The notes under the pieces are model-generated. The model did not search any database. It was not told where the DNA came from and saw only the letters and a list, made by a program, of their open reading frames with translations. Shown piece after piece: positions 9,584 to 34,983 of a DNA stretch of 64,000 bases. The stretch is from the NCBI RefSeq assembly GCF_058153355.1, contig NZ_CM177019.1; one strand, written 5' to 3'. The position numbers were made by a program, and so were the translations under genes. Position 1 is the stretch's first letter; every line of letters starts with the position of its first letter.

Positions 9584-11566
9584 TTACCATTGATAACTAA
9601 CGAAAATTTTTCCGTTACGACCATCCTGTGGGATGCCTTGCGGCGACCAGTACTCTTTGTCGAAGGCGTTGCCCAATACCAGAGTAGTGGTCATACCTTT
9701 GAGCGCCTGCTGCCCTTGATAACTGACGTAGAAATCATTCACACCATAGCCAGGTTGTTTGCTGTAACTGCTGCTGATATGTGTTGAGCGATCGGCAAAC
9801 GTACCGACCCAACCAACAGAGAAGCCACTGTGAGCGATCGGAATATTCAGGGTGCTGGTAACGGTATCCGGGTTAATACTGGAAATATATTCCCCGGTAT
9901 CGGTGTCTTTGCCGCGGGTACGGTTATAGGCCACATCAAGGCTAAACAGATCAGTGGTATATTTCGTCATCACATCCCAGCCCCAGATTTTGGCGTTCGG
10001 GACGTTATACGACATAGTTGTCGCCGCCGCGAAATCGACAGTCGTGGAGATGTAATCCTTCGCTTTGGTATCAAAGTAGCTGGCTTTAAATTCCAGGGCA
10101 TCATTGGACAACATCAGGTCATCAAAACGCAGCCCAAAACCGTACTCCTGAGTTTCGTTAGTTTCCGGACGTAAGTTCGGGTTTGGCACCCAATAGTTGG
10201 TATAGAAGCGACCAATCGAGAAGTGCTTAGAATCGTTATACATTTCGCCCATCGTCGGGGCGCGGAATGCCTGGGCATATGAGCCAAATAACATCAGCCA
10301 GTTGGTCGGGTTGATAGTCATCCCCGCACGAGATGACCATTTGTCAGCATCAACATCTTTGTAGCCGTCGCTGCTACCGTGATAACTGTCATAGCGGGTT
10401 CCGCCAAGCAGGGTAATCGGCAGATCGCGTAAGGTGATCTCATCCTGTAGCCAGCCAGAGCTAAAATCGATTTTTGCTTGCGGAAAGCCCGTCGTCGCGC
10501 CACCCGGATGTTGTTCCTGACGATAATACTCACCGCCATATGTCAGTAAGTGAGAAGCGAAACTGTCGGCAAATAGAGTGGAACGGTTCTCCAGCCTGGC
10601 TCCTTTTGTTATCTGTTCACGATACTCGCCGGAACTCCCCGTGTTTTGCGCATTAATACGGACTTCCGACCAGTAAATTTTTGCATCTGCATTTAACCAG
10701 TCGTTGCCCTGCGGGGCGAGTTTATAAGAAAGCTGCGCATCGCGTTGAATTGTTGAACGATCAACCATCGGGTTGCTGTTTTCAGAAGCCTCAACGGTCT
10801 GCGGATTTTTTGGTTCACGCGCGTCGTTGTTGTAGTAACGCACTAAACCGCTCAGAGACTGGGCTGAATCAATTTGCCAGGTCCCTTTCGCCAGCATGTT
10901 ATTAATGGACTCGTCATTCGGCGCGGTTTCACCATTGCTCTGGCGTAAATCACCCCGATCGCGACTGGACCAGGCCACAATACCATCCAGATTTTCAGTT
11001 CGCCCAAACGCGCTCGCGCCTAATCCCAGGCTATGGTCCCCCGTGCCACCAGTACCAAAGACACGAAAACCACTACTTTGTCCTTCCTGCAATAAATCTT
11101 TTGCATCGACCGTATCGTAGGAGATCACCCCACCCAGCGCGCCACTGCCATACAGTAATGCTGAAGGTCCGCGAACAATCTCAACACGCTTGATCAGCGC
11201 CGGATCGAGAAAAGTACCATTCAGATGTCCGGTATCCGTTCCCTGGCGAACACCATCGACAAGAACCAGCACGCCGCGATGATCATAGCCACGCATATTT
11301 ACATCCTGACCGTTGGTTCGTCCGGTACCATCAAGAGTAATTCCAGGAACATGACGCAGCAGATCGGTGGCTGAAGTAGCCGTTTGATTTTCAGGAGCGG
11401 AAGTGTCGATGACGCTGACCATCATAGGCGCTTCGAAGGAACTACGGGCATTCCCCGTTGCCGTAACGGTCATGGTTTCAGTAGCAAAAGCAAACGTTGG
11501 CAAGGTGGCAGAAACAGCCAAAGCCAACAAACTCAAACGCAACGAGGTAAATTGCGGACGTGACAT
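9584..11566 (-). CDS. chuA: TonB-dependent outer-membrane haem/haemoglobin receptor ChuA (660 aa)
   Basis: ORF 9584..11566; signal peptide, plug and barrel motifs, C-terminal ...KIFVSYQW; matches ChuA/ShuA. Confidence 0.95.
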   Translation of the reverse strand: MSRPQFTSLRLSLLALAVSATLPTFAFATETMTVTATGNARSSFEAPMMVSVIDTSAPENQTATSATDLLRHVPGITLDGTGRTNGQDVNMRGYDHRGVLVLVDGVRQGTDTGHLNGTFLDPALIKRVEIVRGPSALLYGSGALGGVISYDTVDAKDLLQEGQSSGFRVFGTGGTGDHSLGLGASAFGRTENLDGIVAWSSRDRGDLRQSNGETAPNDESINNMLAKGTWQIDSAQSLSGLVRYYNNDAREPKNPQTVEASENSNPMVDRSTIQRDAQLSYKLAPQGNDWLNADAKIYWSEVRINAQNTGSSGEYREQITKGARLENRSTLFADSFASHLLTYGGEYYRQEQHPGGATTGFPQAKIDFSSGWLQDEITLRDLPITLLGGTRYDSYHGSSDGYKDVDADKWSSRAGMTINPTNWLMLFGSYAQAFRAPTMGEMYNDSKHFSIGRFYTNYWVPNPNLRPETNETQEYGFGLRFDDLMLSNDALEFKASYFDTKAKDYISTTVDFAAATTMSYNVPNAKIWGWDVMTKYTTDLFSLDVAYNRTRGKDTDTGEYISSINPDTVTSTLNIPIAHSGFSVGWVGTFADRSTHISSSYSKQPGYGVNDFYVSYQGQQALKGMTTTLVLGNAFDKEYWSPQGIPQDGRNGKIFVSYQW

Positions 11567-11855
11567 AGCGATTCTCCATGAGGAAAATAAAAAATGCTGG
11601 CTGCCTGGGTTAATACCGGGGTGGCTTGCGAGAAATAAATTTATTTAAAATTCAGAGCGATAATATTCGCCGGGTGAGTTTACAGGCGTTTATATCCCAT
11701 GAAATTGCCTGGTATCTCGGCAAATACGCAAAAGCACGCCCTCTTTGTCAGGCAAAACGATATGCCCCATCAGGAGTGAAGAGCGCTGTGCGTTATCCCT
11801 TGCAAATGCTATGGTTTTGTTATCCATATGGTCGTGTTTTGTTAAGCGCGAACGT

Positions 11856-13182: not shown

Positions 13183-14520
13183 ATGAACACAAATAACCCC
13201 CTGGATCTCACGCCACATTTTGCTTTAGACGGTGATCAGCCATTTAAAGACAGGCGCGCCATGATGCCGTTTCGTGGGGCCATTCCAGTTGCCAAAGAGC
13301 AACTGGCACAGACCTGGCAAGAGATGCTCAATCAAACGGTATCACCACGTAAGCGACTGGTTTATCTACACATTCCTTTTTGTGCAACACACTGCACGTT
13401 TTGTGGTTTTTATCAGAACCGTTTTAATGAAGATGCGTGTGCTCATTATACCGACGCCCTGATTCGTGAAATAGAAATGGAAGCGGACAGCGTATTGCAT
13501 CAGTCTGCCCCCATCCACGCGGTCTATTTCGGTGGCGGCACGCCTTCCGCGCTTTCGGCACACGATTTGGCCAGAATTATCACCACATTACGAGAAAAGC
13601 TGCCACTGGCCCCTGATTGTGAAATCACTATCGAAGGCCGGGTACTGAATTTTGACGCTGAGCGAATCGATGCTTGCCTTGATGCAGGAGCAAACCGCTT
13701 CTCAATTGGTATTCAGTCGTTTAACAGCAAAATCCGTAAGAAAATGGCCCGCACCTCGGATGGCCCAACCGCCATTGCGTTTATGGAAAGCCTGGTCAAA
13801 CGCGACCGTGCTGCGGTGGTCTGTGACCTTCTGTTTGGCCTGCCGGGTCAGGATGCGCAAACCTGGGGAGAAGATCTGACTATTGCCCGCGATATCGGTC
13901 TCGACGGCGTCGATCTCTATGCGCTCAATGTCCTGCCCAATACACCGCTGGGCAAAGCCGTGGAAAATGGGCGTACTACCGTGCCCTCTCCGGCAGAACG
14001 ACGCGATCTTTATCTGCAAGGGTGTGACTTCATGGACGAAGCTGGTTGGCGCTGTATCAGTAACAGCCACTGGGGCCGTACCACACGCGAACGCAATCTC
14101 TATAACCTGCTGATTAAACAAGGTGCCGATTGTCTGGCCTTTGGTTCCGGAGCCGGCGGTTCGATTAATGGTTACTCCTGGATGAACGAACGCAGTCTTC
14201 AGACCTGGCATGAATCCGTCGCGGCAGGCAAAAAACCGCTGATGATGATCATGCGTAACGCCGAACGTAATGCGCAATGGCGTCATACCTTGCAGTCAGG
14301 TGTTGAAACAGCGCGTGTACCGCTGGATGAACTTACGCCACATGCCGAAAAACTCGCGCCGTTACTGGCTCAATGGCACCAAAAAGGCTTAAGCCGCGAT
14401 GCTTCAACTTGCCTGCGGCTGACTAATGAAGGTCGTTTCTGGGCAAGCAATATTTTGCAGTCTCTTAATGAACTAATTCAGGTACTTAATGCGCCAGCGA
14501 TTGTGCGTGAAAAACCATAA
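13183..14520 (+). CDS. chuW: Radical-SAM HemN-like haem-degrading enzyme ChuW (anaerobilin synthase), 445 aa
   Basis: ORF 13183..14520; radical-SAM CxxxCxxC motif (CATHCTFCGF); position in the chuTWXY operon. Confidence 0.9.
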   Translation: MNTNNPLDLTPHFALDGDQPFKDRRAMMPFRGAIPVAKEQLAQTWQEMLNQTVSPRKRLVYLHIPFCATHCTFCGFYQNRFNEDACAHYTDALIREIEMEADSVLHQSAPIHAVYFGGGTPSALSAHDLARIITTLREKLPLAPDCEITIEGRVLNFDAERIDACLDAGANRFSIGIQSFNSKIRKKMARTSDGPTAIAFMESLVKRDRAAVVCDLLFGLPGQDAQTWGEDLTIARDIGLDGVDLYALNVLPNTPLGKAVENGRTTVPSPAERRDLYLQGCDFMDEAGWRCISNSHWGRTTRERNLYNLLIKQGADCLAFGSGAGGSINGYSWMNERSLQTWHESVAAGKKPLMMIMRNAERNAQWRHTLQSGVETARVPLDELTPHAEKLAPLLAQWHQKGLSRDASTCLRLTNEGRFWASNILQSLNELIQVLNAPAIVREKP

Positions 14521-14532
14521 CAGGAGTGATTT

Positions 14533-15027
14533 ATGAGCCATGTCTCGTTACAAGAATTTTTGAAAACGGAGCCGGACGGTACGCTGGAGGTGGTAGCCGA
14601 ACAATACAACACCACACTGCTGGAAGTAGTGAGAAATCTACCCTCCTCTACCGTAGTGTCAGGCGATAAATTCGATACTGTCTGGGATACCGTCTGCGAA
14701 TGGGGCAACGTCACCACGTTAGTACATACTGCCGATGTAATCCTCGAATTTAGCGGCGAACTGCCTTCGGGTTTCCATCGCCACGGCTATTTCAACCTAC
14801 GCGGAAAGCACGGCATGTCCGGGCATATCAAAGCAGAAAACTGCACACATATTGCCTTGATCGAACGTAAATTTATGGGCATGGACACCGCATCCATTCT
14901 CTTTTTCAACAAAGAAGGCAGCTCAATGCTGAAAATCTTCCTCGGCAGGGATGACCATCGTCAGCTCCTGAGCGAACAAGTCAGCGCCTTCCATGCTCTG
15001 GCAGCATCGTTAAAGGAACACGCCTGA
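14533..15027 (+). CDS. chuX: Haem-binding/chaperone protein ChuX (164 aa)
   Basis: ORF 14533..15027; operon position; stop overlaps the chuY start. Confidence 0.85.
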   Translation: MSHVSLQEFLKTEPDGTLEVVAEQYNTTLLEVVRNLPSSTVVSGDKFDTVWDTVCEWGNVTTLVHTADVILEFSGELPSGFHRHGYFNLRGKHGMSGHIKAENCTHIALIERKFMGMDTASILFFNKEGSSMLKIFLGRDDHRQLLSEQVSAFHALAASLKEHA

Positions 15028-15650
15028 TGACGCCGTGGCTACTCTTTGGCGCAGGCGGAAAAGGTGTGGGTGCCAGAACGCTTGAACTGGCGCTGGCGGA
15101 ACAACGTCCGGTCGTTGCTGTCATTCGTCATGCTGATGCTGCCACGAAACTGGCGCAACAAGGCGTACAGGTTTTTACAGGCGACGCCTGTGATGCCAGC
15201 GTAGTCGCGGCTGCTTGCCGCGCAGCTGGCCCGGATGCGCTTATCATCTCAACAATGGGCGGAGCTCAGGATTATCTGGCACACAGAACAGTGATTGATG
15301 AGGCCGAAAAGGCCGGCATCAGTCGCATGATTCTGGTGACCTCTTTGGGATGTGGCGATAGCTGGCCGTTTTTATCGGAGCGGGCAAAGGCTGCGTTTGG
15401 TCAGGCGGTACGGGAAAAAACGCTGGCGGAAAGCTGGTTGCAAACCAGCCAGCTTGATTACGCCATTCTCCGCCCTGGCGGTCTGCTTGATGGTGCGGCA
15501 ACGGGCAAAGCACAACGGATACAAAATCAGGAGTGTCATGGTTTTGTTAACCGTGTCGATGTCGCCGCACATATCCATGAACTGGCAAATGCGCCAGCAC
15601 TTAACCAGCAGGTCTACAGTCTGATTGAACCGGACCTGAAACCGGCGTGA
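15027..15650 (+). CDS. chuY: NAD(P)H-dependent anaerobilin reductase ChuY (207 aa)
   Basis: ORF 15027..15650; N-terminal Rossmann motif (GAGGKGVGAR); start overlaps the chuX stop. Confidence 0.85.
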   Translation: MTPWLLFGAGGKGVGARTLELALAEQRPVVAVIRHADAATKLAQQGVQVFTGDACDASVVAAACRAAGPDALIISTMGGAQDYLAHRTVIDEAEKAGISRMILVTSLGCGDSWPFLSERAKAAFGQAVREKTLAESWLQTSQLDYAILRPGGLLDGAATGKAQRIQNQECHGFVNRVDVAAHIHELANAPALNQQVYSLIEPDLKPA

Positions 15651-15698
15651 TCCCCCGGCGCGGAATCTCCGCGCCGTAATGTCGTAACGGAGTTTTGC

Positions 15699-16691
15699 GT
15701 GCTCAAGGATTCACTCTCTTCCGCCAGGGTCTTTATGGGGCTATCACTATTATTGCTAGCTCTGGTGCTGTTCGGTGCCAGTCAGGGAGCGTTAAAGATC
15801 AGTTTTGATGCCCTTTTTGATGAGGAATACCGCGATATCTGGCTCAATATTCGTCTACCACGGGTTTTGCTGGCGGTGCTGGTAGGTGCAGCGTTGGCAA
15901 CCGCCGGGGTAATTATGCAGGGGCTTTTTCGCAACCCAATGGCTGACCCTGGATTACTCGGCGTCAGTAGCGGTTCTGCATTAATGGTTGGCGTTGCTAT
16001 TGTGCTGCCCTTTTCCTTCCCAGTGGTGCTGGTGCTCTATGAGCAAATGGTGTTTGCCATTGCCGGAAGTTTAGTGGTCTGCACCATCATTTTTCTCATC
16101 ACGCAGCGCCATCGCGATGGAAGCATGATGCAATTATTACTCGCCGGTATCGCCATCAATGCCCTGTGCGGCGCAGCGATCGGCATCCTGAGCTATATCG
16201 GCGATGAGCAGCAGCTACGACAACTCACATTGTGGATGATGGGCAATCTTGGACAGGCGCAATGGCCGACGTTATTGGTTGCCAGTTCATTCATCCTACC
16301 GGCCATTATTGCAACAACTTGTCTCGCCGGAACGCTGAATTTACTGCAGCTCGGTGATGAAGAAGCCCACTACCTCGGCGTGAACGTTAAGCGTAAACGC
16401 CAGCAATTACTGTTAGTGAGCTCACTGCTCGTTGGTGCCGCCGTATCGGTAAGCGGCATTATCGGCTTTATTGGCCTGGTGATCCCGCATCTGATTCGTA
16501 TGACTACCGGGGCAAATCACCGCTGGCTAATCCCTTGCTCCGCCCTCGCCGGAGCCTGTTTATTGCTGATGGCAGACACGCTTGCCCGCACACTGGTACA
16601 GCCAGCAGAAATGCCCGTGGGATTATTAACCAGCCTGCTTGGTGGCCCTTATTTTATGTGGTTGATTCTGCGCAACCGGAGGATCACATGA
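15699..16691 (+). CDS. chuU: Haem ABC transporter permease ChuU (FecCD family), 330 aa
   Basis: ORF 15699..16691; polytopic FecCD-type permease. Confidence 0.9.
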
Positions 16692-17458
16692 TCAGCGCCC
16701 AGAATCTGGTTTATAGCCTTCAGGGGCGGCGTCTGACTGATAATGTCTCGCTGACTTTTCCCGGTGGGGAAATTGTTGCCATTCTCGGCCCTAATGGTGC
16801 GGGAAAATCTACGCTGCTTCGCCAGTTAACCGGCTATCTTCAACCTGATAGCGGCGAATGTCGGTTGTTTAATAAGCCATTAAATGAATGGTCGATTACT
16901 GAACTGGCGAAACACCGGGCCGTGATGCGTCAAAATAGCCACATGGCGTTTCCATTCAGCGTACAAGAAGTTATCCAGATGGGGCGGCATCCGCATCGTA
17001 CTGGTAATCAGGATAATGAAACAGCACAAATAATGGCGTTATGTGACTGTCAGGCGTTAGCAAACCGCGACTATCGGCAATTATCCGGTGGTGAACAACA
17101 GCGCGTGCAATTAGCGCGCCTGCTGGTGCAACTCTGGGAACCAACTCCCTCACCGAAATGGTTATTTCTTGATGAACCAACTTCGGCGCTGGATATTCAC
17201 CATCAGCAGCACTTGTTTCGTTTATTACGCCAGCTAGTTCACGAACGGCAGTTCAATGTTTGCTGCGTATTGCACGATCTAAATCTTGCCGCGCGTTATG
17301 CAGACCGTGTTGTATTAATGCAAAAAGGAAAGGTTATCGCAAATGGTAAACCGCAGGACGTATTGACACAGCAGGCGCTGACAATGCTCTACGGCGCGGA
17401 TATTACCGTACTTAAAGATCCTGCCAACCATTCACCACTGATCGTCCTCGATCATTAA
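16688..17458 (+). CDS. chuV: Haem ABC transporter ATP-binding protein ChuV (HmuV), 256 aa
   Basis: ORF 16535..17458 trimmed to the ATG at 16688 (ATGA overlap with chuU stop); Walker [10 protein letters not shown], signature LSGGEQQR, Walker [12 protein letters not shown]. Confidence 0.9.
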
Positions 17459-17464
17459 AACCAA

Positions 17465-17489
17465 CAGGAGTACCGCTCTGGTACTCCTG
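17465..17489. terminator. Bidirectional terminator hairpin between convergent chuV and yhiD
   Basis: caggagtacc-gctct-ggtactcctg, perfect 10-bp stem. Confidence 0.6.
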
Positions 17490-17509
17490 CGAATAAATAA
17501 CTATATAGA

Positions 17510-18157
17510 TTAGCTAATTGAAACGCCTTTCACCCCTGCCATACCTTTTAATAATCGCAACAGATCTTCTATCGACGTCGTGGCATGAAGCTGGATATCA
17601 ATGGCGACCACTTCATGATCTTCATTTTCCTGCAACGAAACTAAATCCGTTTTTATTTTTTGCTGCTTAAACCAGTCGAGCATTGATACCGTATTACCGT
17701 TCACTAATGTCAGCTGTAAATGGTAATTTTTATTCATCAGGCGGAAGGTTAATTGATGGAAGACTTCCAGCACCAGTAAGGTCATCACTGAACCATAAAT
17801 GCCCAGTTCGTACATACCGCTACCAATAACCATACCAATGGCGGCGGTCACCCAGATATCCGCTGCCGTCGTCAGACCTACAATATTTTGGTTACGAACG
17901 AGAATGTTACCTGCACCGATAAACCCGACGCCCGTCACCACCTGAGCAGCAATACGGCTGGGGTCCAGTCCGACGTGATCTAAAGACAGCACGTCAGCAA
18001 AACCATATTTCGAAACAATCATAAACAGGGCGCTTCCCATGCCAATTAATACATGTGTGCGTAACCCTGCTCCTTTGCCGCGCATTTGCCTTTCCATGCC
18101 AATAGCGCCACAGGCAATTGCTGCGAGTATAAGACGTATAATAAATTCTGTTGTCAT
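17510..18157 (-). CDS. yhiD: MgtC-family inner-membrane protein YhiD
   Basis: ORF 17510..18169 trimmed to MTTEFIIRLILAAIACGAIGMERQ...; matches YhiD. Confidence 0.9.
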   Translation of the reverse strand: MTTEFIIRLILAAIACGAIGMERQMRGKGAGLRTHVLIGMGSALFMIVSKYGFADVLSLDHVGLDPSRIAAQVVTGVGFIGAGNILVRNQNIVGLTTAADIWVTAAIGMVIGSGMYELGIYGSVMTLLVLEVFHQLTFRLMNKNYHLQLTLVNGNTVSMLDWFKQQKIKTDLVSLQENEDHEVVAIDIQLHATTSIEDLLRLLKGMAGVKGVSIS

Positions 18158-18220
18158 ATAAAAATGCAAAAAGGAGCAGCAAGATGGCTCAACTTGCTAC
18201 TCCTTTTTACTTGTGCCCCA

Positions 18221-18547
18221 TTAATTCGGCAAGTCATTAGATGCTTGATTTTTGAAAGTATACAAATTTTTCTGCGGATTTTTTTTGCAGTATTCGATCA
18301 CTTTAGGAATTTGAGTAAGATCGGTTTCATTTAAAGTAACAGTATCACCACCTTTATAAACTGTTTCTTCATGCAGCATCCACCACGCAACCGGTGTCAT
18401 TGCTTTTGGATTCAGATCAATAAATTCCTGGCAAGTCATATCTTTAGCGGATTCATTGGCTGCCAGCGCAGATTGTGCGTTCACCAGTGACAAAGCCGCT
18501 ACAGCGCCCATAAAAATAAACGCTTTACGGAGAGATGAAATATTCAT
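18221..18547 (-). CDS. hdeB: Periplasmic acid-stress chaperone HdeB
   Basis: ORF 18221..18559 trimmed to MNISSLRKAF...; matches HdeB. Confidence 0.9.
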   Translation of the reverse strand: MNISSLRKAFIFMGAVAALSLVNAQSALAANESAKDMTCQEFIDLNPKAMTPVAWWMLHEETVYKGGDTVTLNETDLTQIPKVIEYCKKNPQKNLYTFKNQASNDLPN

Positions 18548-18662
18548 TTTGTAACCCATTCAATATAGAGATTAAATATGAACAGAAGGAATAGCTGCTT
18601 TTGAAGAAGGTATTCCTACCTGTTCAATATGCAAGGAAGTACGATGTAACGTATTCCCGGAA

Positions 18663-18995
18663 TTACATATCTTTCTTAACTTTGTCCCATTCGCTTTTAA
18701 CTTTATCTTTAAAGTTGGCTTGTTTATCCTGAGTACAAGCCTGAACGATCGCTGGGGTTACGGTTGCAATACCCTGAACATCTAAAACCGCATCTTCTGG
18801 TTTATCTTTATTGTTCAGTGCTTCAGCAAAACCAACTGCAGTTGGCTGGAAGGATTCGTCCACAGCCAGAAAATCTTCACAGGTCCAGGTGTTGACCGGT
18901 TTTTTGTTATCAGCTGCTTTTTGTGCATCCGCTGCATTGCTCACCACTGGCAGAAGAAGCAGACCACCAAGAATAACGCCTAATACTTTTTTCAT
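18663..18995 (-). CDS. hdeA: Periplasmic acid-stress chaperone HdeA (110 aa)
   Basis: ORF 18663..18995; MKKVLGVILGGLLLLPVVSNAADAQKAADNKKPVNTWTCEDF...; matches HdeA. Confidence 0.95.
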   Translation of the reverse strand: MKKVLGVILGGLLLLPVVSNAADAQKAADNKKPVNTWTCEDFLAVDESFQPTAVGFAEALNNKDKPEDAVLDVQGIATVTPAIVQACTQDKQANFKDKVKSEWDKVKKDM

Positions 18996-19249
18996 CGTAA
19001 TATCCTCAACTATAAAGTGAAAGAGCCGTCACGAATCAATTTCGACACTGAGGTTATAACCTGGTTTTCTGTATATGTCATGTTGATGGAAAATATCAAA
19101 ATCAGATATTTTTATTTCAATACAATGAGTTACAGATGCATCTGATACTGTAATTAGGAAATTTTTATTAAATCGACTGCATTCTTAGACGCGTTTTTGG
19201 CATAGATTGATAGCAGGGGATTTTCTTCTTAATTTTATAGGGTGGTTCT

Positions 19250-19822
19250 ATGTTATATATAGATAAGGCAACAATTTTGAAGTTTGATCTGGAGATGCTT
19301 AAAAAACATCGCAGAGCAATCCAGTTTATTGCCGTGCTGCTGTTTATCGTCGGGTTGCTGTGTATCAGTTTTCCGTTCGTCTCTGGCGATATTTTAAGCA
19401 CAGTAGTGGGTGCATTATTAATCTGCTCGGGTATTGCGCTTATTGTCGGGTTATTCAGCAACCGTAGTCATAATTTCTGGCCGGTATTATCCGGTTTCCT
19501 CGTCGCAGTCGCCTATTTATTGATCGGCTATTTCTTCATCCGCGCACCAGAGCTGGGCATTTTTGCCATTGCGGCATTTATTGCCGGTTTGTTCTGTGTG
19601 GCAGGGGTTATTCGCCTGATGAGTTGGTATCGTCAGCGTTCAATGAAAGGCAGTTGGCTACAGCTCGTTATTGGTGTGCTGGATATCGTCATTGCCTGGA
19701 TATTCCTTGGTGCAACGCCGATGGTTTCTGTAACGCTGGTTTCCACACTAGTGGGAATTGAACTGATATTTAGCGCCGCTAGCCTGTTCAGCTTCGCCAG
19801 TTTGTTTGTTAAAAAGCAATAA
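19250..19822 (+). CDS. hdeD: Acid-resistance membrane protein HdeD (190 aa)
   Basis: ORF 19250..19822; divergent from hdeAB; matches HdeD. Confidence 0.9.
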   Translation: MLYIDKATILKFDLEMLKKHRRAIQFIAVLLFIVGLLCISFPFVSGDILSTVVGALLICSGIALIVGLFSNRSHNFWPVLSGFLVAVAYLLIGYFFIRAPELGIFAIAAFIAGLFCVAGVIRLMSWYRQRSMKGSWLQLVIGVLDIVIAWIFLGATPMVSVTLVSTLVGIELIFSAASLFSFASLFVKKQ

Positions 19823-19839
19823 TTATCCCTATTGCCACC

Positions 19840-19870
19840 TGGATCATAGTCACTTAATGTGACTATGATC
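19840..19870. repeat. Perfect 13-bp-arm palindrome 18 bp after the hdeD stop (possible terminator or protein-binding site)
   Basis: ggatcatagtcac-ttaat-gtgactatgatcc. Confidence 0.5.
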
Positions 19871-20226
19871 CAATTAATACTCTCTCCGCTACACAGCATT
19901 TTAGATCAATTGCGCGCTATCATTGAAATAATTATCTGCTGATGAGTATTTCAACCTACTGAATTTTATCTGATTTTTTTCATTGCATGGCAAATTAGCC
20001 ATTTCAAACATTATCATGGCTGATATTTTCCGTAGTCAGGTTTAATGTTTTAAAAGTGCTGTGGGAAAGTGAACAAAGAGTTCCGTAAGCGTTGATGCTA
20101 TGGGCGGTTAAATAAGTAATCCGGGTTCATTTTTTTATAACTGGCGTTGATTACATTGCATAAATATCCGTGTCTCCAGACGCTATATAAAAACCTGAAG
20201 ACATGAATGAGTTATTTACTCAGGTA

Positions 20227-20310
20227 ATTTCAATGCGTTAAAAGAAAGCTGGCAATCCAATTGCCAGCTTAAGTCGAAACAAGGAGACTCGATATTTAAA
20301 TCGGATTACA
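20227..20310 (-). ncRNA. arrS: Possible antisense sRNA in the gadE leader (ArrS-like); only its minus-strand terminator is directly visible
   Basis: Perfect hairpin agctggcaat-cca-attgccagct (20237..20259) followed on the minus strand by UUCUUUU; extent and identity are inferred from recalled K-12 organisation. Confidence 0.3.
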
Positions 20311-20620
20311 TTTTAACTTTAGTAATATTCTTCAGAGATCACAAACTGGTTATTGATAACTTATTCTTGGGCAGTAATCCGCAAACGTTAATTTTTTGTT
20401 TGCAGTTTACAATCTGATAACAACCAGGAATTTTACTTAGGATCAATATATGGAGTGCGTGATGGATAAATCTGAAGTATTGATTAGTGTTAATAGACGT
20501 ATTAGTTCACGAAGGGCAAGGTTCTTATAGGCGTTTACTATATTGAACAACGATTCGAACAGGGATGTAAATAATGAAAAGGATGACATGTTCGAAACGA
20601 TAACGGCTAAGGAGCAAGTT

Positions 20621-21148
20621 ATGATTTTTCTCATGACGAAAGATTCTTTTCTTTTACAGGGCTTTTGGCAGTTGAAAGATAATCACGAAATGATAAAAAT
20701 CAATTCCCTGTCAGAGATCAAAAAAGTAGGTAATAAACCCTTCAAGGTTATCATTGATACCTATCACAACCATATCCTTGATGAAGAAGCGATTAAATTT
20801 CTGGAGAAATTAGACGCCGAGAGAATTATTGTTTTGGCACCTTATCACATCAGTAAACTAAAAGCTAAAGCGCCTATTTATTTTGTCAGCCGCAAAGAAA
20901 GTATCAAAAATCTTCTTGAGATTACTTATGGTAAACACTTGCCCCATAAGAATTCACAATTATGTTTTTCACATAATCAGTTCAAAATTATGCAGCTGAT
21001 TCTGAAAAACAAAAACGAAAGCAATATCACGTCAACGCTCAATATTTCGCAACAAACATTAAAGATTCAGAAATTCAACATTATGTACAAGCTGAAACTA
21101 AGACGTATGAGCGACATCGTCACCCTGGGTATCACATCTTATTTTTAG
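20621..21148 (+). CDS. gadE: LuxR-family acid-resistance master regulator GadE (175 aa)
   Basis: ORF 20543..21148 trimmed to MIFLMTKDSFLLQGFWQLKDNHEMIKINSLSEIKK...; matches GadE; roughly 800-bp upstream regulatory region. Confidence 0.9.
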   Translation: MIFLMTKDSFLLQGFWQLKDNHEMIKINSLSEIKKVGNKPFKVIIDTYHNHILDEEAIKFLEKLDAERIIVLAPYHISKLKAKAPIYFVSRKESIKNLLEITYGKHLPHKNSQLCFSHNQFKIMQLILKNKNESNITSTLNISQQTLKIQKFNIMYKLKLRRMSDIVTLGITSYF

Positions 21149-21486
21149 TCAGGACATAATTAACTGAAAATGATGGCAGGCATGAAGAGGGATGCAGATG
21201 CTGATTTCATTATCCCCGGTGATGACTAAAGGAGAGGCGAAAACGACTTTATTCCCCTGGTATGTGTATCCACCAGTAGAACCCTTCGTTGCCCGAATGC
21301 TGGCAGGAACTGTTGGCAGAACGGCAACATTTTTTTTGTCGTTGACCTCACCATGTCGATCACTGTGCTTGCATCCCATCTTACTGGCTGACAACCCCAC
21401 TATGCCGCTGGTCTGTAAATCCCTCATACCTCTCCTCGCGCGCAATTTAAAGAACCGTTATATCTCAAGAATTTTCAGGGACTAAA

Positions 21487-22644
21487 ATGAACAGAAGAAG
21501 AAAACTGTTAATACCGTTGTTATTCTGCGGCGCGATGCTCACCGCCTGCGATGACAAATCGACGGAAAACGCCGCCGCCATGACGCCTGAGGTCGGTGTC
21601 GTCACACTCTCCCCCGGTTCGGTCAATGTGTTGAGCGAATTGCCCGGTAGAACCGTTCCTTATGAAGTTGCCGAGATACGCCCTCAGGTGGGCGGTATTA
21701 TCATTAAACGCAACTTTATCGAAGGCGATAAAGTGAACCAGGGCGATTCGCTGTATCAGATTGATCCTGCGCCTTTACAGGCCGATCTAAACTCCGCCAA
21801 AGGCTCGTTGGCGAAAGCACTCTCAACCGCCAGCAATGCCCGCATCACCTTTAACCGCCAGGCATCATTGCTGAAGACCAACTACGTTAGCCGTCAGGAT
21901 TACGACACCGAGCGCACCCAGCTGAATGAAGCAGAAGCCAATGTCACCGTCGCCAAAGCGGCTGTTGAACAGGCGACGATCAATCTGCAATACGCGAATG
22001 TCACCTCGCCGATTACGGGCGTCAGCGGGAAATCGTCGGTGACCGTCGGCGCACTCGTTACCGCTAATCAAGCCGATTCACTGGTTACCGTGCAACGTCT
22101 GGACCCGATTTATGTCGATCTCACGCAGTCGGTGCAGGATTTTTTGCGCATGAAAGAAGAGGTCGCCAGTGGACAAATCAAACAGGTTCAGGGCAGTACG
22201 CCAGTACAGCTCAATCTGGAAAATGGTAAACGTTACAGCCAGACCGGCACGCTGAAATTCTCCGACCCGACGGTGGATGAAACCACGGGCTCCGTGACGT
22301 TACGGGCGATTTTCCCCAACCCAAATGGTGACTTGCTGCCAGGTATGTATGTCACGGCATTAGTGGATGAAGGTAGCCGCCAGAATGTATTACTGGTGCC
22401 GCAGGAAGGCGTCACCCACAACGCCCAGGGTAAAGCAACGGCGCTCATTCTGGATAAAGACGATGTTGTGCAGCTACGCGAAATTAAAGCCAGCAAAGCC
22501 ATCGGCGACCAGTGGGTTGTCACCTCTGGCTTGCAGGCTGGCGATCGGGTGATCGTTTCCGGTTTGCAACGTATTCATCCGGGTATCAAAGCACGTGCAA
22601 TTTCCTCCAGCCAGGAAAACGCCAGCACCGAATCGAAACAATAA
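21487..22644 (+). CDS. mdtE: RND efflux membrane-fusion protein MdtE (385 aa)
   Basis: ORF 21487..22644; lipobox LTAC; matches MdtE. Confidence 0.95.
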   Translation: MNRRRKLLIPLLFCGAMLTACDDKSTENAAAMTPEVGVVTLSPGSVNVLSELPGRTVPYEVAEIRPQVGGIIIKRNFIEGDKVNQGDSLYQIDPAPLQADLNSAKGSLAKALSTASNARITFNRQASLLKTNYVSRQDYDTERTQLNEAEANVTVAKAAVEQATINLQYANVTSPITGVSGKSSVTVGALVTANQADSLVTVQRLDPIYVDLTQSVQDFLRMKEEVASGQIKQVQGSTPVQLNLENGKRYSQTGTLKFSDPTVDETTGSVTLRAIFPNPNGDLLPGMYVTALVDEGSRQNVLLVPQEGVTHNAQGKATALILDKDDVVQLREIKASKAIGDQWVVTSGLQAGDRVIVSGLQRIHPGIKARAISSSQENASTESKQ

Positions 22645-22668
22645 CGTTGCAGGCTTAAGGGGACTTTC

Positions 22669-25600
22669 ATGGCTAACTATTTTATTGATCGCCCGGTTTT
22701 TGCCTGGGTACTTGCCATTATTATGATGCTTGCAGGTGGTCTGGCGATCATGAACTTACCGGTTGCGCAATATCCGCAGATTGCGCCACCAACTATTACC
22801 GTCAGCGCAACCTATCCGGGTGCCGATGCGCAAACGGTAGAAGACTCGGTCACTCAGGTGATTGAGCAAAATATGAATGGGCTTGATGGCCTGATGTACA
22901 TGTCTTCAACCAGCGATGCGGCGGGTAATGCCTCCATCACTCTGACCTTTGAGACGGGGACATCGCCTGATATCGCACAGGTTCAGGTACAAAATAAACT
23001 GCAACTCGCAATGCCTTCATTACCTGAAGCGGTGCAGCAGCAGGGTATTAGCGTCGATAAGTCGAGCAGTAATATCCTGATGGTAGCGGCGTTTATTTCT
23101 GATAACGGCAGTCTCAACCAGTACGATATCGCGGACTATGTAGCGTCTAATATCAAAGACCCGCTAAGCCGTACCGCGGGCGTTGGTAGCGTACAGCTCT
23201 TTGGTTCCGAGTACGCCATGCGTATCTGGCTGGACCCGCAAAAACTCAATAAATATAACCTGGTACCTTCCGATGTTATTTCCCAGATTAAGGTGCAAAA
23301 CAACCAGATTTCCGGTGGTCAACTGGGTGGCATGCCACAGGCGGCAGACCAGCAACTGAACGCCTCGATCATTGTGCAGACGCGTCTGCAAACGCCGGAA
23401 GAATTTGGCAAAATCCTGTTGAAAGTTCAGCAAGATGGTTCGCAAGTACTGCTGCGTGATGTCGCCCGCGTCGAACTTGGGGCGGAAGATTATTCCACCG
23501 TGGCGCGCTATAACGGCAAACCTGCTGCCGGGATCGCCATCAAACTGGCTACCGGAGCAAACGCCCTGGATACCTCGCGAGCGGTGAAAGAGGAGCTGAA
23601 CCGTTTATCGGCTTATTTCCCCGCAAGCCTGAAGACGGTTTATCCTTACGACACCACACCGTTTATCAAAATTTCTATTCAGGAAGTTTTCAAAACGCTG
23701 GTTGAGGCTATCATCCTCGTCTTCCTGGTCATGTATCTGTTTTTGCAGAATTTCCGAGCCACAATCATCCCGACGATTGCCGTACCGGTGGTTATTCTCG
23801 GGACGTTTGCGATCTTGTCGGCGGTCGGTTTCACCATCAACACCCTCACCATGTTCGGGATGGTGCTGGCGATAGGGTTGTTGGTGGATGACGCCATCGT
23901 GGTGGTAGAAAACGTCGAGCGCGTGATAGCGGAGGATAAACTGCCGCCGAAGGAAGCAACGCATAAATCCATGGGGCAAATCCAACGCGCTCTGGTCGGG
24001 ATTGCCGTTGTGCTTTCCGCGGTGTTTATGCCAATGGCCTTTATGAGCGGTGCAACCGGGGAGATCTACCGACAGTTCTCCATCACGCTGATCTCCTCCA
24101 TGCTGCTTTCAGTATTTGTGGCAATGAGCCTGACCCCTGCCCTGTGCGCCACCATTCTGAAAGCCGCGCCGGAAGGCGGTCACAAACCTAACGCCCTGTT
24201 CGCACGCTTCAACACGCTGTTTGAAAAATCGACTCATCACTATACCGATAGCACCCGCTCGCTGTTGCGTTGTACCGGTCGCTACATGGTGGTCTACCTG
24301 CTGATTTGCGCCGGGATGGCAGTGCTGTTCCTGCGTACGCCGACCTCTTTCTTACCAGAAGAGGATCAGGGGGTATTTATGACCACCGCGCAGTTACCTT
24401 CCGGTGCAACCATGGTTAACACCACGAAAGTGCTGCAACAGGTGACTGATTATTATCTGACAAAAGAGAAAGATAATGTTCAGTCGGTGTTTACCGTTGG
24501 CGGCTTTGGCTTCAGTGGCCAGGGGCAAAACAACGGTCTGGCGTTTATCAGCCTCAAACCGTGGTCTGAACGTGTCGGTGAGGAAAACTCGGTTACCGCG
24601 ATCATTCAGCGGGCAATGATTGCGTTAAGCAGTATCAATAAAGCCGTCGTCTTCCCGTTCAACTTACCCGCGGTGGCTGAACTGGGTACCGCGTCAGGTT
24701 TTGATATGGAACTGCTGGACAACGGTAACCTGGGGCACGAAAAACTGACCCAGGCGCGAAACGAGCTATTATCACTGGCAGCGCAATCACCGAATCAGGT
24801 CACCGGGGTACGCCCGAACGGACTGGAAGATACGCCGATGTTCAAAGTGAACGTCAACGCCGCGAAAGCCGAGGCAATGGGTGTGGCGCTGTCTGATATC
24901 AACCAGACAATTTCCACCGCCTTCGGCAGCAGCTACGTGAACGACTTCCTCAACCAGGGGCGGGTGAAAAAAGTGTATGTCCAGGCAGGCACGCCGTTCC
25001 GTATGTTGCCGGATAACATCAACCAGTGGTATGTACGCAACGCCTCTGGCACGATGGCACCGCTTTCGGCCTATTCGTCTACCGAATGGACCTATGGTTC
25101 ACCGCGACTGGAACGCTACAACGGCATCCCGTCAATGGAGATTTTAGGTGAAGCGGCGGCCGGGAAAAGTACCGGTGACGCTATGAAATTTATGGCAGAC
25201 CTGGTCGCTAAACTTCCGGCAGGCGTCGGCTACTCGTGGACCGGACTGTCGTATCAGGAAGCGTTATCCTCAAACCAGGCTCCCGCGCTGTATGCCATTT
25301 CACTGGTCGTGGTGTTCCTCGCCCTTGCCGCACTTTATGAGAGCTGGTCAATTCCGTTCTCGGTGATGTTGGTTGTACCGTTAGGTGTCGTTGGCGCATT
25401 ACTGGCCACCGATCTGCGCGGCTTAAGTAATGACGTCTACTTCCAGGTTGGTTTGCTGACTACCATCGGGCTTTCCGCCAAGAACGCCATCCTGATCGTC
25501 GAATTTGCCGTTGAGATGATGCAGAAAGAAGGGAAAACGCCGATAGAGGCAATCATCGAAGCGGCGCGGATGCGTTTACGCCCAATCCTGATGACCTCTC

Positions 25601-25782
25601 TGGCCTTTATTCTCGGCGTGTTGCCGCTGGTAATCAGCCACGGTGCCGGTTCCGGCGCGCAAAACGCGGTAGGTACCGGCGTGATGGGCGGGATGTTTGC
25701 CGCAACAGTGCTGGCCATTTACTTCGTTCCAGTCTTTTTCGTTGTAGTGGAACATCTCTTTGCCCGCTTTAAAAAAGCGTAA
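22669..25782 (+). CDS. mdtF: RND multidrug efflux pump MdtF (1037 aa)
   Basis: ORF 22669..25782; AcrB-family sequence [27 protein letters not shown]... Confidence 0.95.
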
Positions 25783-25789
25783 CGTGTAA

Positions 25790-25828
25790 ATGAGAGTAAG
25801 GTTGAACGTGAGGGTTCAGCCTTACTCT
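25790..25828 (+). terminator. Hairpin downstream of mdtF
   Basis: agtaaggttgaac...gttcagccttact (one mismatch) followed by ctttcc. Confidence 0.4.
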
Positions 25829-26144
25829 TTCCTGCTAACCATTCACCACTCAACAACCAGCTAACCGTCAGGAATACCAGGCTTAGTACACAGCACTGAA
25901 AGTAAAAACCACTCCAGCCATTCGTCATCAATTTGAACAGCACAATACTGACCCACATTCCCGTAATCGTATGAATTGTCAGCTTAATAATCCCAAACAT
26001 GCCGAGTCTTTTCCTCCTGAAAATACCTATACCGCCTGGCATACTGCGAAAGAGAACTAGCCGGTAGCCCGGCAGAAATCATCAGGGAAGAGTTTCACAT
26101 GAAGCACGTGTGAGATCCTGACCAATATTCAAATGCGAAATATG

Positions 26145-26873: not shown

Positions 26874-27119
26874 GACTATCCCTTATATTTCATTACTGCG
26901 ATTATTTCAATTTCAGTATACTAATGAAATGATGCCAGACCGCTTCTTCGTGCATAAACTGCCATATTTGGTAGGACCAAAAGTTATCCAAAAAGTAGTT
27001 TGACATAACAGTTAATTGATAATAAGAAAATGCAAGAAGAATATATTTTCACACAGCGCATAGCTTATGTTTATAAAAAAATGGCTGATCTTATCTCCAG
27101 TAAAAGTTATATTTAACTT

Positions 27120-27225
27120 ACTGAGAGCACAAAGTTTCCCGTGCCAACAGGGAGTGTTATAACGGTTTATTAGTCTGGAGACGGCAGACTATCCTCTTCC
27201 CGGTCCCCTATGCCGGGTTTTTTTT
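27120..27225 (+). ncRNA. gadY: GadY small RNA, antisense to the gadX 3-prime end
   Basis: actgagagcacaaagtttcccgtgccaacagggag...cccggtcccctatgccggg followed by eight T; intrinsic terminator on the + strand ending 16 bp before the gadX stop; matches GadY as I recall it. Confidence 0.65.
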
Positions 27226-27240
27226 ATGTCTGGGTAAAAA

Positions 27241-33532: not shown

Positions 33533-33555
33533 AAAATTATCCTCTTCAGGAGGAG

Positions 33556-34981
33556 TAATGCCGATCAGTTAAGGATCAGTTGACCGATCCAGTGGCTGTG
33601 TAAGAATCCGGAAACGCTCACTTGTTTCCGGATTTTTTTATGCACATTGGACAGGCTCTTGATCTGGTATCCCGTTACGATTCTCTGCGTAACCCACTGA
33701 CTTCTCTGGGGGATTACCTCGACCCCGAACTCATCTCTCGTTGCCTTGCCGAATCAGGTACTGTAACGCTACGCAAGCGCCGTCTTCCCCTCGAAATGAT
33801 GGTCTGGTGTATTGTTGGCATGGCGCTTGAGCGTAAAGAACCTCTTCACCAGATTGTGAATCGCCTGGACATCATGCTGCCGGGCAATCGCCCCTTCGTT
33901 GCCCCCAGTGCCGTTATTCAGGCCCGCCAGCGCCTGGGAAGTGAGGCTGTCCGCCGCGTGTTCACGAAAACAGCGCAGCTCTGGCATAACGCCACGCCGC
34001 ATCCGCACTGGTGCGGCCTGACCCTGCTGGCCATCGATGGTGTGTTCTGGCGCACACCGGATACACCAGAGAACGATGCAGCCTTCCCCCGCCAGACACA
34101 TGCCGGGAACCCGGCGCTCTACCCGCAGGTCAAAATGGTCTGCCAGATGGAACTGACCAGCCATCTGCTGACGGCTGCAGCCTTCGGCACGATGAAGAAC
34201 AGCGAAAATGAGCTTGCTGAGCAACTTATAGAACAAACCGGCGATAACACTCTGACGTTAATGGATAAAGGTTATTACTCACTGGGACTGTTAAATGCCT
34301 GGAGCCTGGCGGGAGAACACCGCCACTGGATGATACCTCTCAGAAAGGGAGCGCAATATGAAGAGATCAGAAAACTGGGTAAAGGCGATCATCTGGTGAA
34401 GCTGAAAACCAGCCCGCAGGCACGAAAAAAGTGGCCGGGACTGGGAAATGAAGTGACAGCCCGCCTGCTGACCGTGACGCGCAAAGGAAAAGTCTGCCAT
34501 CTGCTGACGTCGATGACGGACGCCATGCGCTTCCCCGGAGGAGAAATGGCGGATCTGTACAGTCATCGCTGGGAAATCGAACTGGGATACAGGGAGATAA
34601 AACAGACGATGCAACTGAGCAGGCTGACGCTGAGAAGTAAAAAGCCGGAGCTTGTGGAGCAAGAGCTGTGGGGTGTCTTACTGGCTTATAATCTGGTGAG
34701 ATATCAGATGATTAAAATGGCGGAACATCTGAAAGGTTACTGGCCGAATCAACTGAGTTTCTCAGAATCATGCGGAATGGTGATGAGAATGCTGATGACA
34801 TTGCAGGGCGCTTCACCGGGACGTATACCGGAGCTGATGCGCGATCTTGCAAGTATGGGACAACTTGTGAAATTACCGACAAGAAGGGAAAGGGCCTTCC
34901 CGAGAGTGGTAAAGGAGAGGCCCTGGAAATACCCCACAGCCCCGAAAAAGAGCCAGTCAGTTGCTTAACTGACTGGCATTA
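33556..34981 (+). mobile_element. IS4 copy 2 (1426 bp), same orientation as copy 1
   Basis: Same termini as copy 1; its own 12-bp target duplication cttcaggaggag at 33544..33555 and 34982..34993; the transposase ORF is identical at the protein level to copy 1. Confidence 0.9.
33640..34968 (+). CDS. insG: IS4 transposase InsG (442 aa)
   Basis: ORF 33622..34968; identical translation to the ORF at 1441..2787. Confidence 0.9.
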
Positions 34982-34983
34982 CT

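Follow-up and report, generated by a model that had tools for sequence, protein, structure and literature searches.

The minus-strand hairpin upstream of gadE as the terminator of the antisense small RNA ArrS

The hdeD–gadE region and its hairpin

The window (the whole stretch of DNA analyzed here, 64 kb in length) contains the acid fitness island of E. coli, in which hdeB and hdeA are located on the minus strand. The region considered below extends from hdeD to mdtF, and its features are as follows, with the basis of each assignment in parentheses.

19250–19822, plus strand: hdeD (open reading frame list and K-12 annotation)
20240–20309, minus strand: arrS, the gene for a 70-nt small regulatory RNA with its transcription start site (a G) at 20309 and its 3' end at 20240 (70/70 match to K-12 b4704, synteny, and conservation)
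20240–20309, plus strand: target segment in the 5' UTR of the gadE transcript T3, fully complementary to ArrS (start sites from PMC3708157, placed via the ATG at 20621)
20240–20245, minus strand: terminator U-tract UCUUUU, or UUUCUUUU when the last two U residues of the stem are counted (sequence reading; the annotated K-12 3' end corresponds to 20240)
20246–20270, minus strand: Rho-independent terminator hairpin of ArrS, with an 11-bp perfect stem and a UGG loop (terminator scan, hairpin enumeration, folding, and invariance)
20316–20322, minus strand: putative arrS −10 element CTAAAGT, composed of −13C and TAAAGT at −12 to −7 (manual reading and conservation)
20339–20344, minus strand: putative arrS −35 element TTGTGA at −35 to −30, with a 17-bp spacer to the −10 element (inferred by manual reading)
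20352–20370, minus strand: nearly invariant block CCAAGAATAAGTTATCAAT at −61 to −43 from the arrS start site, a candidate activator site (alignment A2)
20621–21148, plus strand: coding sequence of gadE, the cis-regulated gene (open reading frame list; annotated in K-12 and other E. coli genomes)
21487–22644: mdtE
22669 onward: mdtF

Transcription of gadE has been reported to start at −566 (T3), −324/−317 (T2), −124 (T1), and −21 relative to the ATG codon (PMC3708157), which, counted from the ATG at 20621, correspond to positions 20055, 20297/20304, 20497, and 20600 of the window, respectively. The hairpin had originally been placed inside the gadE leader, which is true for the leader of T3 only: ArrS is complementary to nucleotides 186–255 of T3, overlaps merely the first 6–13 nucleotides at the T2 start, and lies upstream of T1, the start of which is downstream of arrS.

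On the plus strand, the hairpin is composed of agctggcaat (20247–20256), the loop cca (20257–20259), and attgccagct (20260–20269), exactly the letters given in the original prediction. The 10-bp stem described there is indeed perfect, but an additional A–T pair lengthens it to 11 bp (20246–20270) around the 3-nt loop. In the minus-strand RNA, the hairpin reads AAGCUGGCAAU-UGG-AUUGCCAGCUU and is followed by UCUUUUAACG; the U-rich tail, previously read as UUCUUUU, is present, although its first U belongs to the end of the stem and the tract itself is UCUUUU. As expected of an intrinsic terminator, a stable, G+C-containing hairpin is followed directly by a U-rich tract on the transcribed (minus) strand, and a consensus scan reported a minus-strand terminator-like site at 20270–20246 with 11 pairs (five of them G–C) and a 3-nt loop. 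The hairpin alone has a folding energy of −15 kcal/mol (z = −4.5 versus shuffled sequences) and, together with the U-tract, makes up the last 31 nt of the arrS gene. The U-tract at 20240–20245 is also the likely Hfq-binding 3' tail, the role of Hfq being known from the literature (PMC5145812). On the plus strand, the hairpin is followed by TAAGTCGAAA without a U-run and is preceded by AAAAGAA; since the U-run is absent from this strand, the hairpin is a terminator in the minus-strand direction only.

Enumeration of perfect hairpins with stems of at least 10 bp and loops of 3–8 nt gave 13 hits at eight distinct loci in the window, four of them within the two IS4 copies described below. Markov-1 simulations of the 64-kb window yielded a mean of 0.57 and a maximum of three such hits, which makes it unlikely that the hairpin arose by chance. 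Within 19700–21300, two terminator-like sites were found versus 0.9 ± 1.2 expected, a count that is not significant in itself.

The whole 70-nt RNA has a minimum free energy of −20.2 kcal/mol (z = −3.84), with none of 200 shuffled sequences being as stable, and its minimum free energy structure consists of two short 5' helices and the terminator. Ten of the 11 pairs of the terminator stem never vary, and the remaining one changes from A–U to the wobble pair G–U (A41G, in ST131); the middle helix (21–24/35–38) is broken in three of the six distinct sequences. A covariation test of this structure with seven Escherichia sequences detected no double-sided (compensatory) changes; the stem is essentially invariant, which in such a test counts neither for nor against the structure. 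The terminator alone is well supported, on the basis of thermodynamics and invariance without covariation, and the first small helix is possibly credible.

Several other elements are found in the surroundings of the locus. A perfect 14-bp palindrome at 19840–19872 (tggatcatagtcac-ttaat-gtgactatgatcca) lies 18 bp past the hdeD stop codon and lacks a U-run on both flanks. The outermost base pair differs between the window (T–A) and K-12 (C–G), a compensatory change that suggests a selected hairpin, perhaps serving as a 3' stabilizer or terminator of hdeD or as a protein-binding site. A strong inverted repeat between yhiD and hdeB (18167–18212, AAAAAGGAGCAGCAAG...CTTGCTACTCCTTTTT), where only spurious sub-threshold Rfam hits were obtained, looks like a bidirectional terminator. 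Just downstream of gadE, the Rfam sRNA ES205 matched 21266–21337 of the plus strand (105 bits), ending in a terminator with a U8 run; this hit coincides with the 3' part of the K-12 sRNA GadF, which maps by offset to 21247–21337. Other Rfam hits at the gathering level were GadY (27117–27230, plus strand), the rdlD antitoxin RNA (63759–63824, plus strand), and the shuA/chuA 5' UTR thermoregulator (11564–11595, minus strand), the last of which indicates that the heme-uptake shu/chu locus is present. Two IS4-type copies (1373–2802 and 33554–34983), 32,181 bp apart, are 100% identical over 1430 nt (99.7% over 1443 nt by BLAST), and the open reading frame at 1441–2787 encodes a 448-residue protein matching Nterm_IS4 and DDE_Tnp_1. 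The pair brackets the chu/shu–hde–gad region and might lead to its rearrangement or composite mobility. The 12 kb at 14000–26000 reached a best identity of 99.3% among the 5426 complete E. coli genomes of RefSeq, most of which showed 95–99%; this ceiling, together with the shu/chu locus and the multiple IS4 copies, suggests Shigella or an under-sampled E. coli lineage as the source of the DNA.

Correspondence with K-12 arrS and its promoter

In the K-12 genome (NC_000913.3), the ncRNA arrS (b4704, 'small regulatory RNA ArrS') is annotated at 3657985–3658054 on the minus strand, between hdeD and gadE. Comparison with these coordinates, as proposed along with the original prediction, placed the gene at 20240–20309 (minus strand) of the window, with zero mismatches over the 70 nt. 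The hdeD–gadE intergenic region is 798 bp long in both the window and K-12 and can be aligned position by position, and the location of arrS relative to the gadE ATG (−381 to −312) is the same in the two genomes. The 70-bp promoter region upstream of arrS is also identical, and a 201-bp alignment around the gene contains a single difference from K-12, located downstream of the terminator. The RNA of the window thus agrees with K-12 ArrS in sequence, strand, hdeD–gadE synteny, distance to the gadE ATG, terminator, and upstream 70 bp; nothing differs in the RNA itself, and the differences are confined to its intergenic surroundings (34 of the 798 positions, all outside 20211–20391).

It is hardly in doubt that the hairpin and its U-run constitute the Rho-independent terminator of arrS, the known 70-nt minus-strand sRNA transcribed from a promoter in the hdeD–gadE intergenic region. 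The claim that an ArrS-like cis-antisense sRNA ends here in a minus-strand terminator is borne out by the 70/70 match to K-12 arrS at the same offset from gadE, and, as judged by sequence, the feature is ArrS itself, beyond merely being ArrS-like. The span first assigned to it (20227–20620) proved to be a wide envelope around the hairpin (20246–20270) and the RNA gene (20240–20309), and the transcript end, first put at about 20237, is expected at 20240 from the annotated K-12 end.

No Rfam family matched at arrS, either in a search of 18000–23000 against Rfam 15 at E-values up to 1 or in a search of the whole window at gathering thresholds, where the nearby hits were ES205/GadF and GadY. This silence is due to the absence of a matching family and does not argue against the RNA. 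Among the other RefSeq E. coli records examined, none carries a feature under the arrS match, and it is only in the curated K-12 record that the gene is named.

The manual reading of the arrS promoter, TTGTGA-17-TAAAGT, scores 8/12, and a sigma-70 consensus scan called no promoter upstream of 20309, the putative element falling below its threshold. The −35 hexamer TTGTGA is invariant in all seven aligned Escherichia sequences, in which the −10 element occurs only as TAAAGT, TAAAAT, or TAGAAT, and −13C, −12T, −11A, −9A, and −7T are invariant. A C residue at −13 is typical of sigma-S promoters. Further upstream, 18 of the 19 positions of the block CCAAGAATAAGTTATCAAT are invariant (alignment A2). 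A scan of the whole intergenic region with a 20-bp GAD-box consensus gave a best match of 13/20, no better than chance (12–15/20 in shuffled sequences), and the GAD-box was accordingly dropped as evidence for a GadE-dependent activation site. The dependence of arrS on sigma-S is taken from the literature (PMC6755755), and the locus is known to be part of a domain silenced by H-NS/StpA, in which the gadE and arrS promoters show defined peaks of protein occupancy (PMC12266141).

Conservation of arrS and alternative readings of the hairpin

The 161-bp segment 20200–20360 was found at an identity of at least 95% in 5411 of the 5426 complete E. coli genomes, always on the chromosome, and the hdeD–gadE intergenic region is present in 5413 of them. 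As a side observation, E. coli AH21H052 (NZ_CP196264.1, 1552–2221) carries IS200C inserted in the arrS terminator U-tract, after nucleotide 68 of ArrS, which probably changes the termination of ArrS and cuts the gadE P3 region off from gadE.

A scan of one genome per species with the stem pattern and a free loop returned seven loci, four of which belong to Escherichia ('E. coli' E69, Escherichia sp. E1V33, E. whittamii, and Escherichia sp. MOD1-EC7003). The exact stem pattern misses the phylogroup B2 variant A41G, and the scan therefore under-reports the distribution. Two hits, one in an Anaerolineae MAG and the other in a Gammaproteobacteria MAG, have no homology to the locus and were dismissed as palindromes arising by chance. 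A further hit lies on an 8.6-kb contig assigned to 'Flavobacterium paronense' CECT 8460 (NZ_JAUFQN010000010.1), positions 3064–4961 of which are 96.6% identical to E. coli hdeD–gadE; the contig is almost certainly a contaminant of E. coli origin in the Flavobacterium assembly.

In E69, E1V33, and E. whittamii, the hdeD–gadE locus is 81–89% identical to that of the window, yet arrS is 97.6% identical, and the 30-bp bins just 3' of the terminator fall to 0–21% identity with insertions and deletions. Within the 1.9-kb hdeD–gadE stretch, arrS is the third most conserved non-overlapping 70-nt segment, the other conserved islands being the P3/T3 start region (20003–20062) and the P1/leader region (20423–20620). 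We show here, at the level of sequence comparison, that arrS is under strong purifying selection with a sharp boundary at its 3' end.

The palindrome might instead act mainly on the sense strand, as a hairpin in the T3 5' UTR involved in processing or stability or as a protein-binding inverted repeat in gadE P2, the U-run on the minus strand being secondary. Indeed, the palindrome is perfect, its plus-strand fold is equally good (−15 kcal/mol), and the T2 starts at 20297/20304 imply that the P2 promoter DNA overlaps arrS (PMC3708157). Conservation of the 70 bp could partly reflect this overlapping promoter and the T3 leader on the other strand, so that it is not assignable to ArrS alone and cannot by itself separate the strands. 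However, the plus-strand hairpin, with AAAAGAA ahead of it and TAAGTCGAAA rather than a U-run behind it, has the asymmetry expected of a minus-strand terminator, and conservation stops exactly at the minus-strand U-tract, a boundary that fits a minus-strand gene best. Moreover, experiments in K-12 have both detected and manipulated the ArrS RNA (PMC6755755, PMC11979758, PMC6212723, PMC5145812). A mainly sense-strand function is clearly unlikely, and would be at best an additional role of the palindrome, not an alternative to its being the arrS terminator.

Since the hairpin forms on both strands and its site lies 186–255 nt into the T3 leader (PMC3708157), it could also be thought of as a bidirectional terminator or attenuator that halts plus-strand transcription (read-through from hdeD, or T3 itself) ahead of gadE. 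This is very improbable, given that no U-run is found 3' of the hairpin on the plus strand, that the terminator scan reported the minus strand only, and that T3 has been reported as a gadE transcript that includes the region (PMC3708157). Finally, a chance hairpin next to a fortuitous T-run in AT-rich intergenic DNA, with no transcript end there in this strain, would be compatible with the non-significant count of terminator-like sites in 19700–21300 but is barely conceivable in view of the simulated mean of only 0.57 perfect hairpins of at least 10 bp per 64 kb, the identity of the site to a curated, experimentally studied sRNA gene, and its invariance in lineages with neighboring DNA diverged beyond recognition.

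Roles of ArrS and comparison with related RNAs

ArrS, the RNA that ends at this terminator, is already a characterized antisense sRNA of E. coli, located upstream of the acid-resistance regulator gene gadE. In K-12, it has been described as a cis-antisense RNA that is induced by sigma-S and GadE and directed against T3, the longest gadE transcript, and as an activator of cfa, which pairs at the RydC site of the cfa 5' UTR so as to mask an RNase E site, the pairing having been proven by a compensatory test with ArrS C7G and cfa G101C (PMC6755755). ArrS has also been linked to stabilization of the gadE mRNA, and RIL-seq classified it as an Hfq-associated sRNA with an excess of acid-stress genes among its partners (PMC5145812); in a transcriptome-wide study, ArrS was found to contain a site cleaved by RNase III (PMC6212723). 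Repression of fepA by ArrS is abolished by mutation of the terminator loop, which does not lower ArrS levels, and no base pairing with fepA was detected in that study of the SdsR, RseX, and ArrS terminator loops (PMC11979758). Deletion of arrS in K-12 caused no acid-survival phenotype under the conditions of one study (PMC6755755), so that the physiological weight of the RNA is modest.

Given that both the RNA and its promoter region match those of K-12 without any difference, we infer that the functions of K-12 ArrS would hold in the organism of the window. As in the K-12 experiments, ArrS would be induced at low pH and in stationary phase via sigma-S and GadE, the ArrS–T3 duplex would be linked to RNase III-dependent processing and stabilization of the gadE mRNA, and overexpression of ArrS would raise acid resistance. 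In trans and together with Hfq, the 5' region of ArrS (C7) would pair with the cfa 5' UTR and mask the RNase E site, leading to activation of cfa, and, following the K-12 data, ArrS would repress fepA in a manner that needs the loop of the terminator hairpin at 20246–20270.

It may be speculated that ArrS is kept mainly for such trans-acting roles, dependent on Hfq and the terminator loop (cfa, fepA, or another partner), rather than for cis control of gadE, and also that the CCA loop of the T3 hairpin makes the first contact with the UGG loop of ArrS. This idea, which we consider rather unlikely, arises from the near-invariance of the RNA, including the UGG loop and the 5' seed, in Escherichia lineages where the adjacent DNA is unalignable, with a cliff at the U-tract. 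The overlapping constraints of gadE P2 and T3 could explain the conservation of arrS equally well.

Among the related RNAs, GadY (Rfam RF00122) is an sRNA of the same acid fitness island, but has an unrelated sequence and its own Rfam family, whereas ArrS has no Rfam hit; the cis target of GadY is the gadX–gadW mRNA and not a gadE 5' UTR. Both are cis-antisense regulators of the acid response that bind Hfq and behave as trans-acting sRNAs in RIL-seq (PMC5145812). RydC likewise activates cfa, pairing with the long cfa 5' UTR at a site that overlaps the one used by ArrS and masking the RNase E site, but is the product of an unrelated gene without a cis-antisense target, and its deletion, unlike that of arrS, renders cells acid-sensitive (PMC6755755). 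The 3' terminator modules of SdsR and RseX resemble that of ArrS in that repression of fepA depends on the intrinsic terminator loops (PMC11979758), although their sequences and loops are different.

As a discovery, the finding carries little weight, ArrS being annotated in K-12 and treated in papers from at least 2014. Its value lies in annotation: because the other records examined lack the feature and no Rfam family matches, arrS is recognizable only through comparison with K-12. A small cross-species addition is that arrS is restricted to Escherichia, hardly varies within that genus, and has its terminator as the edge of conservation.
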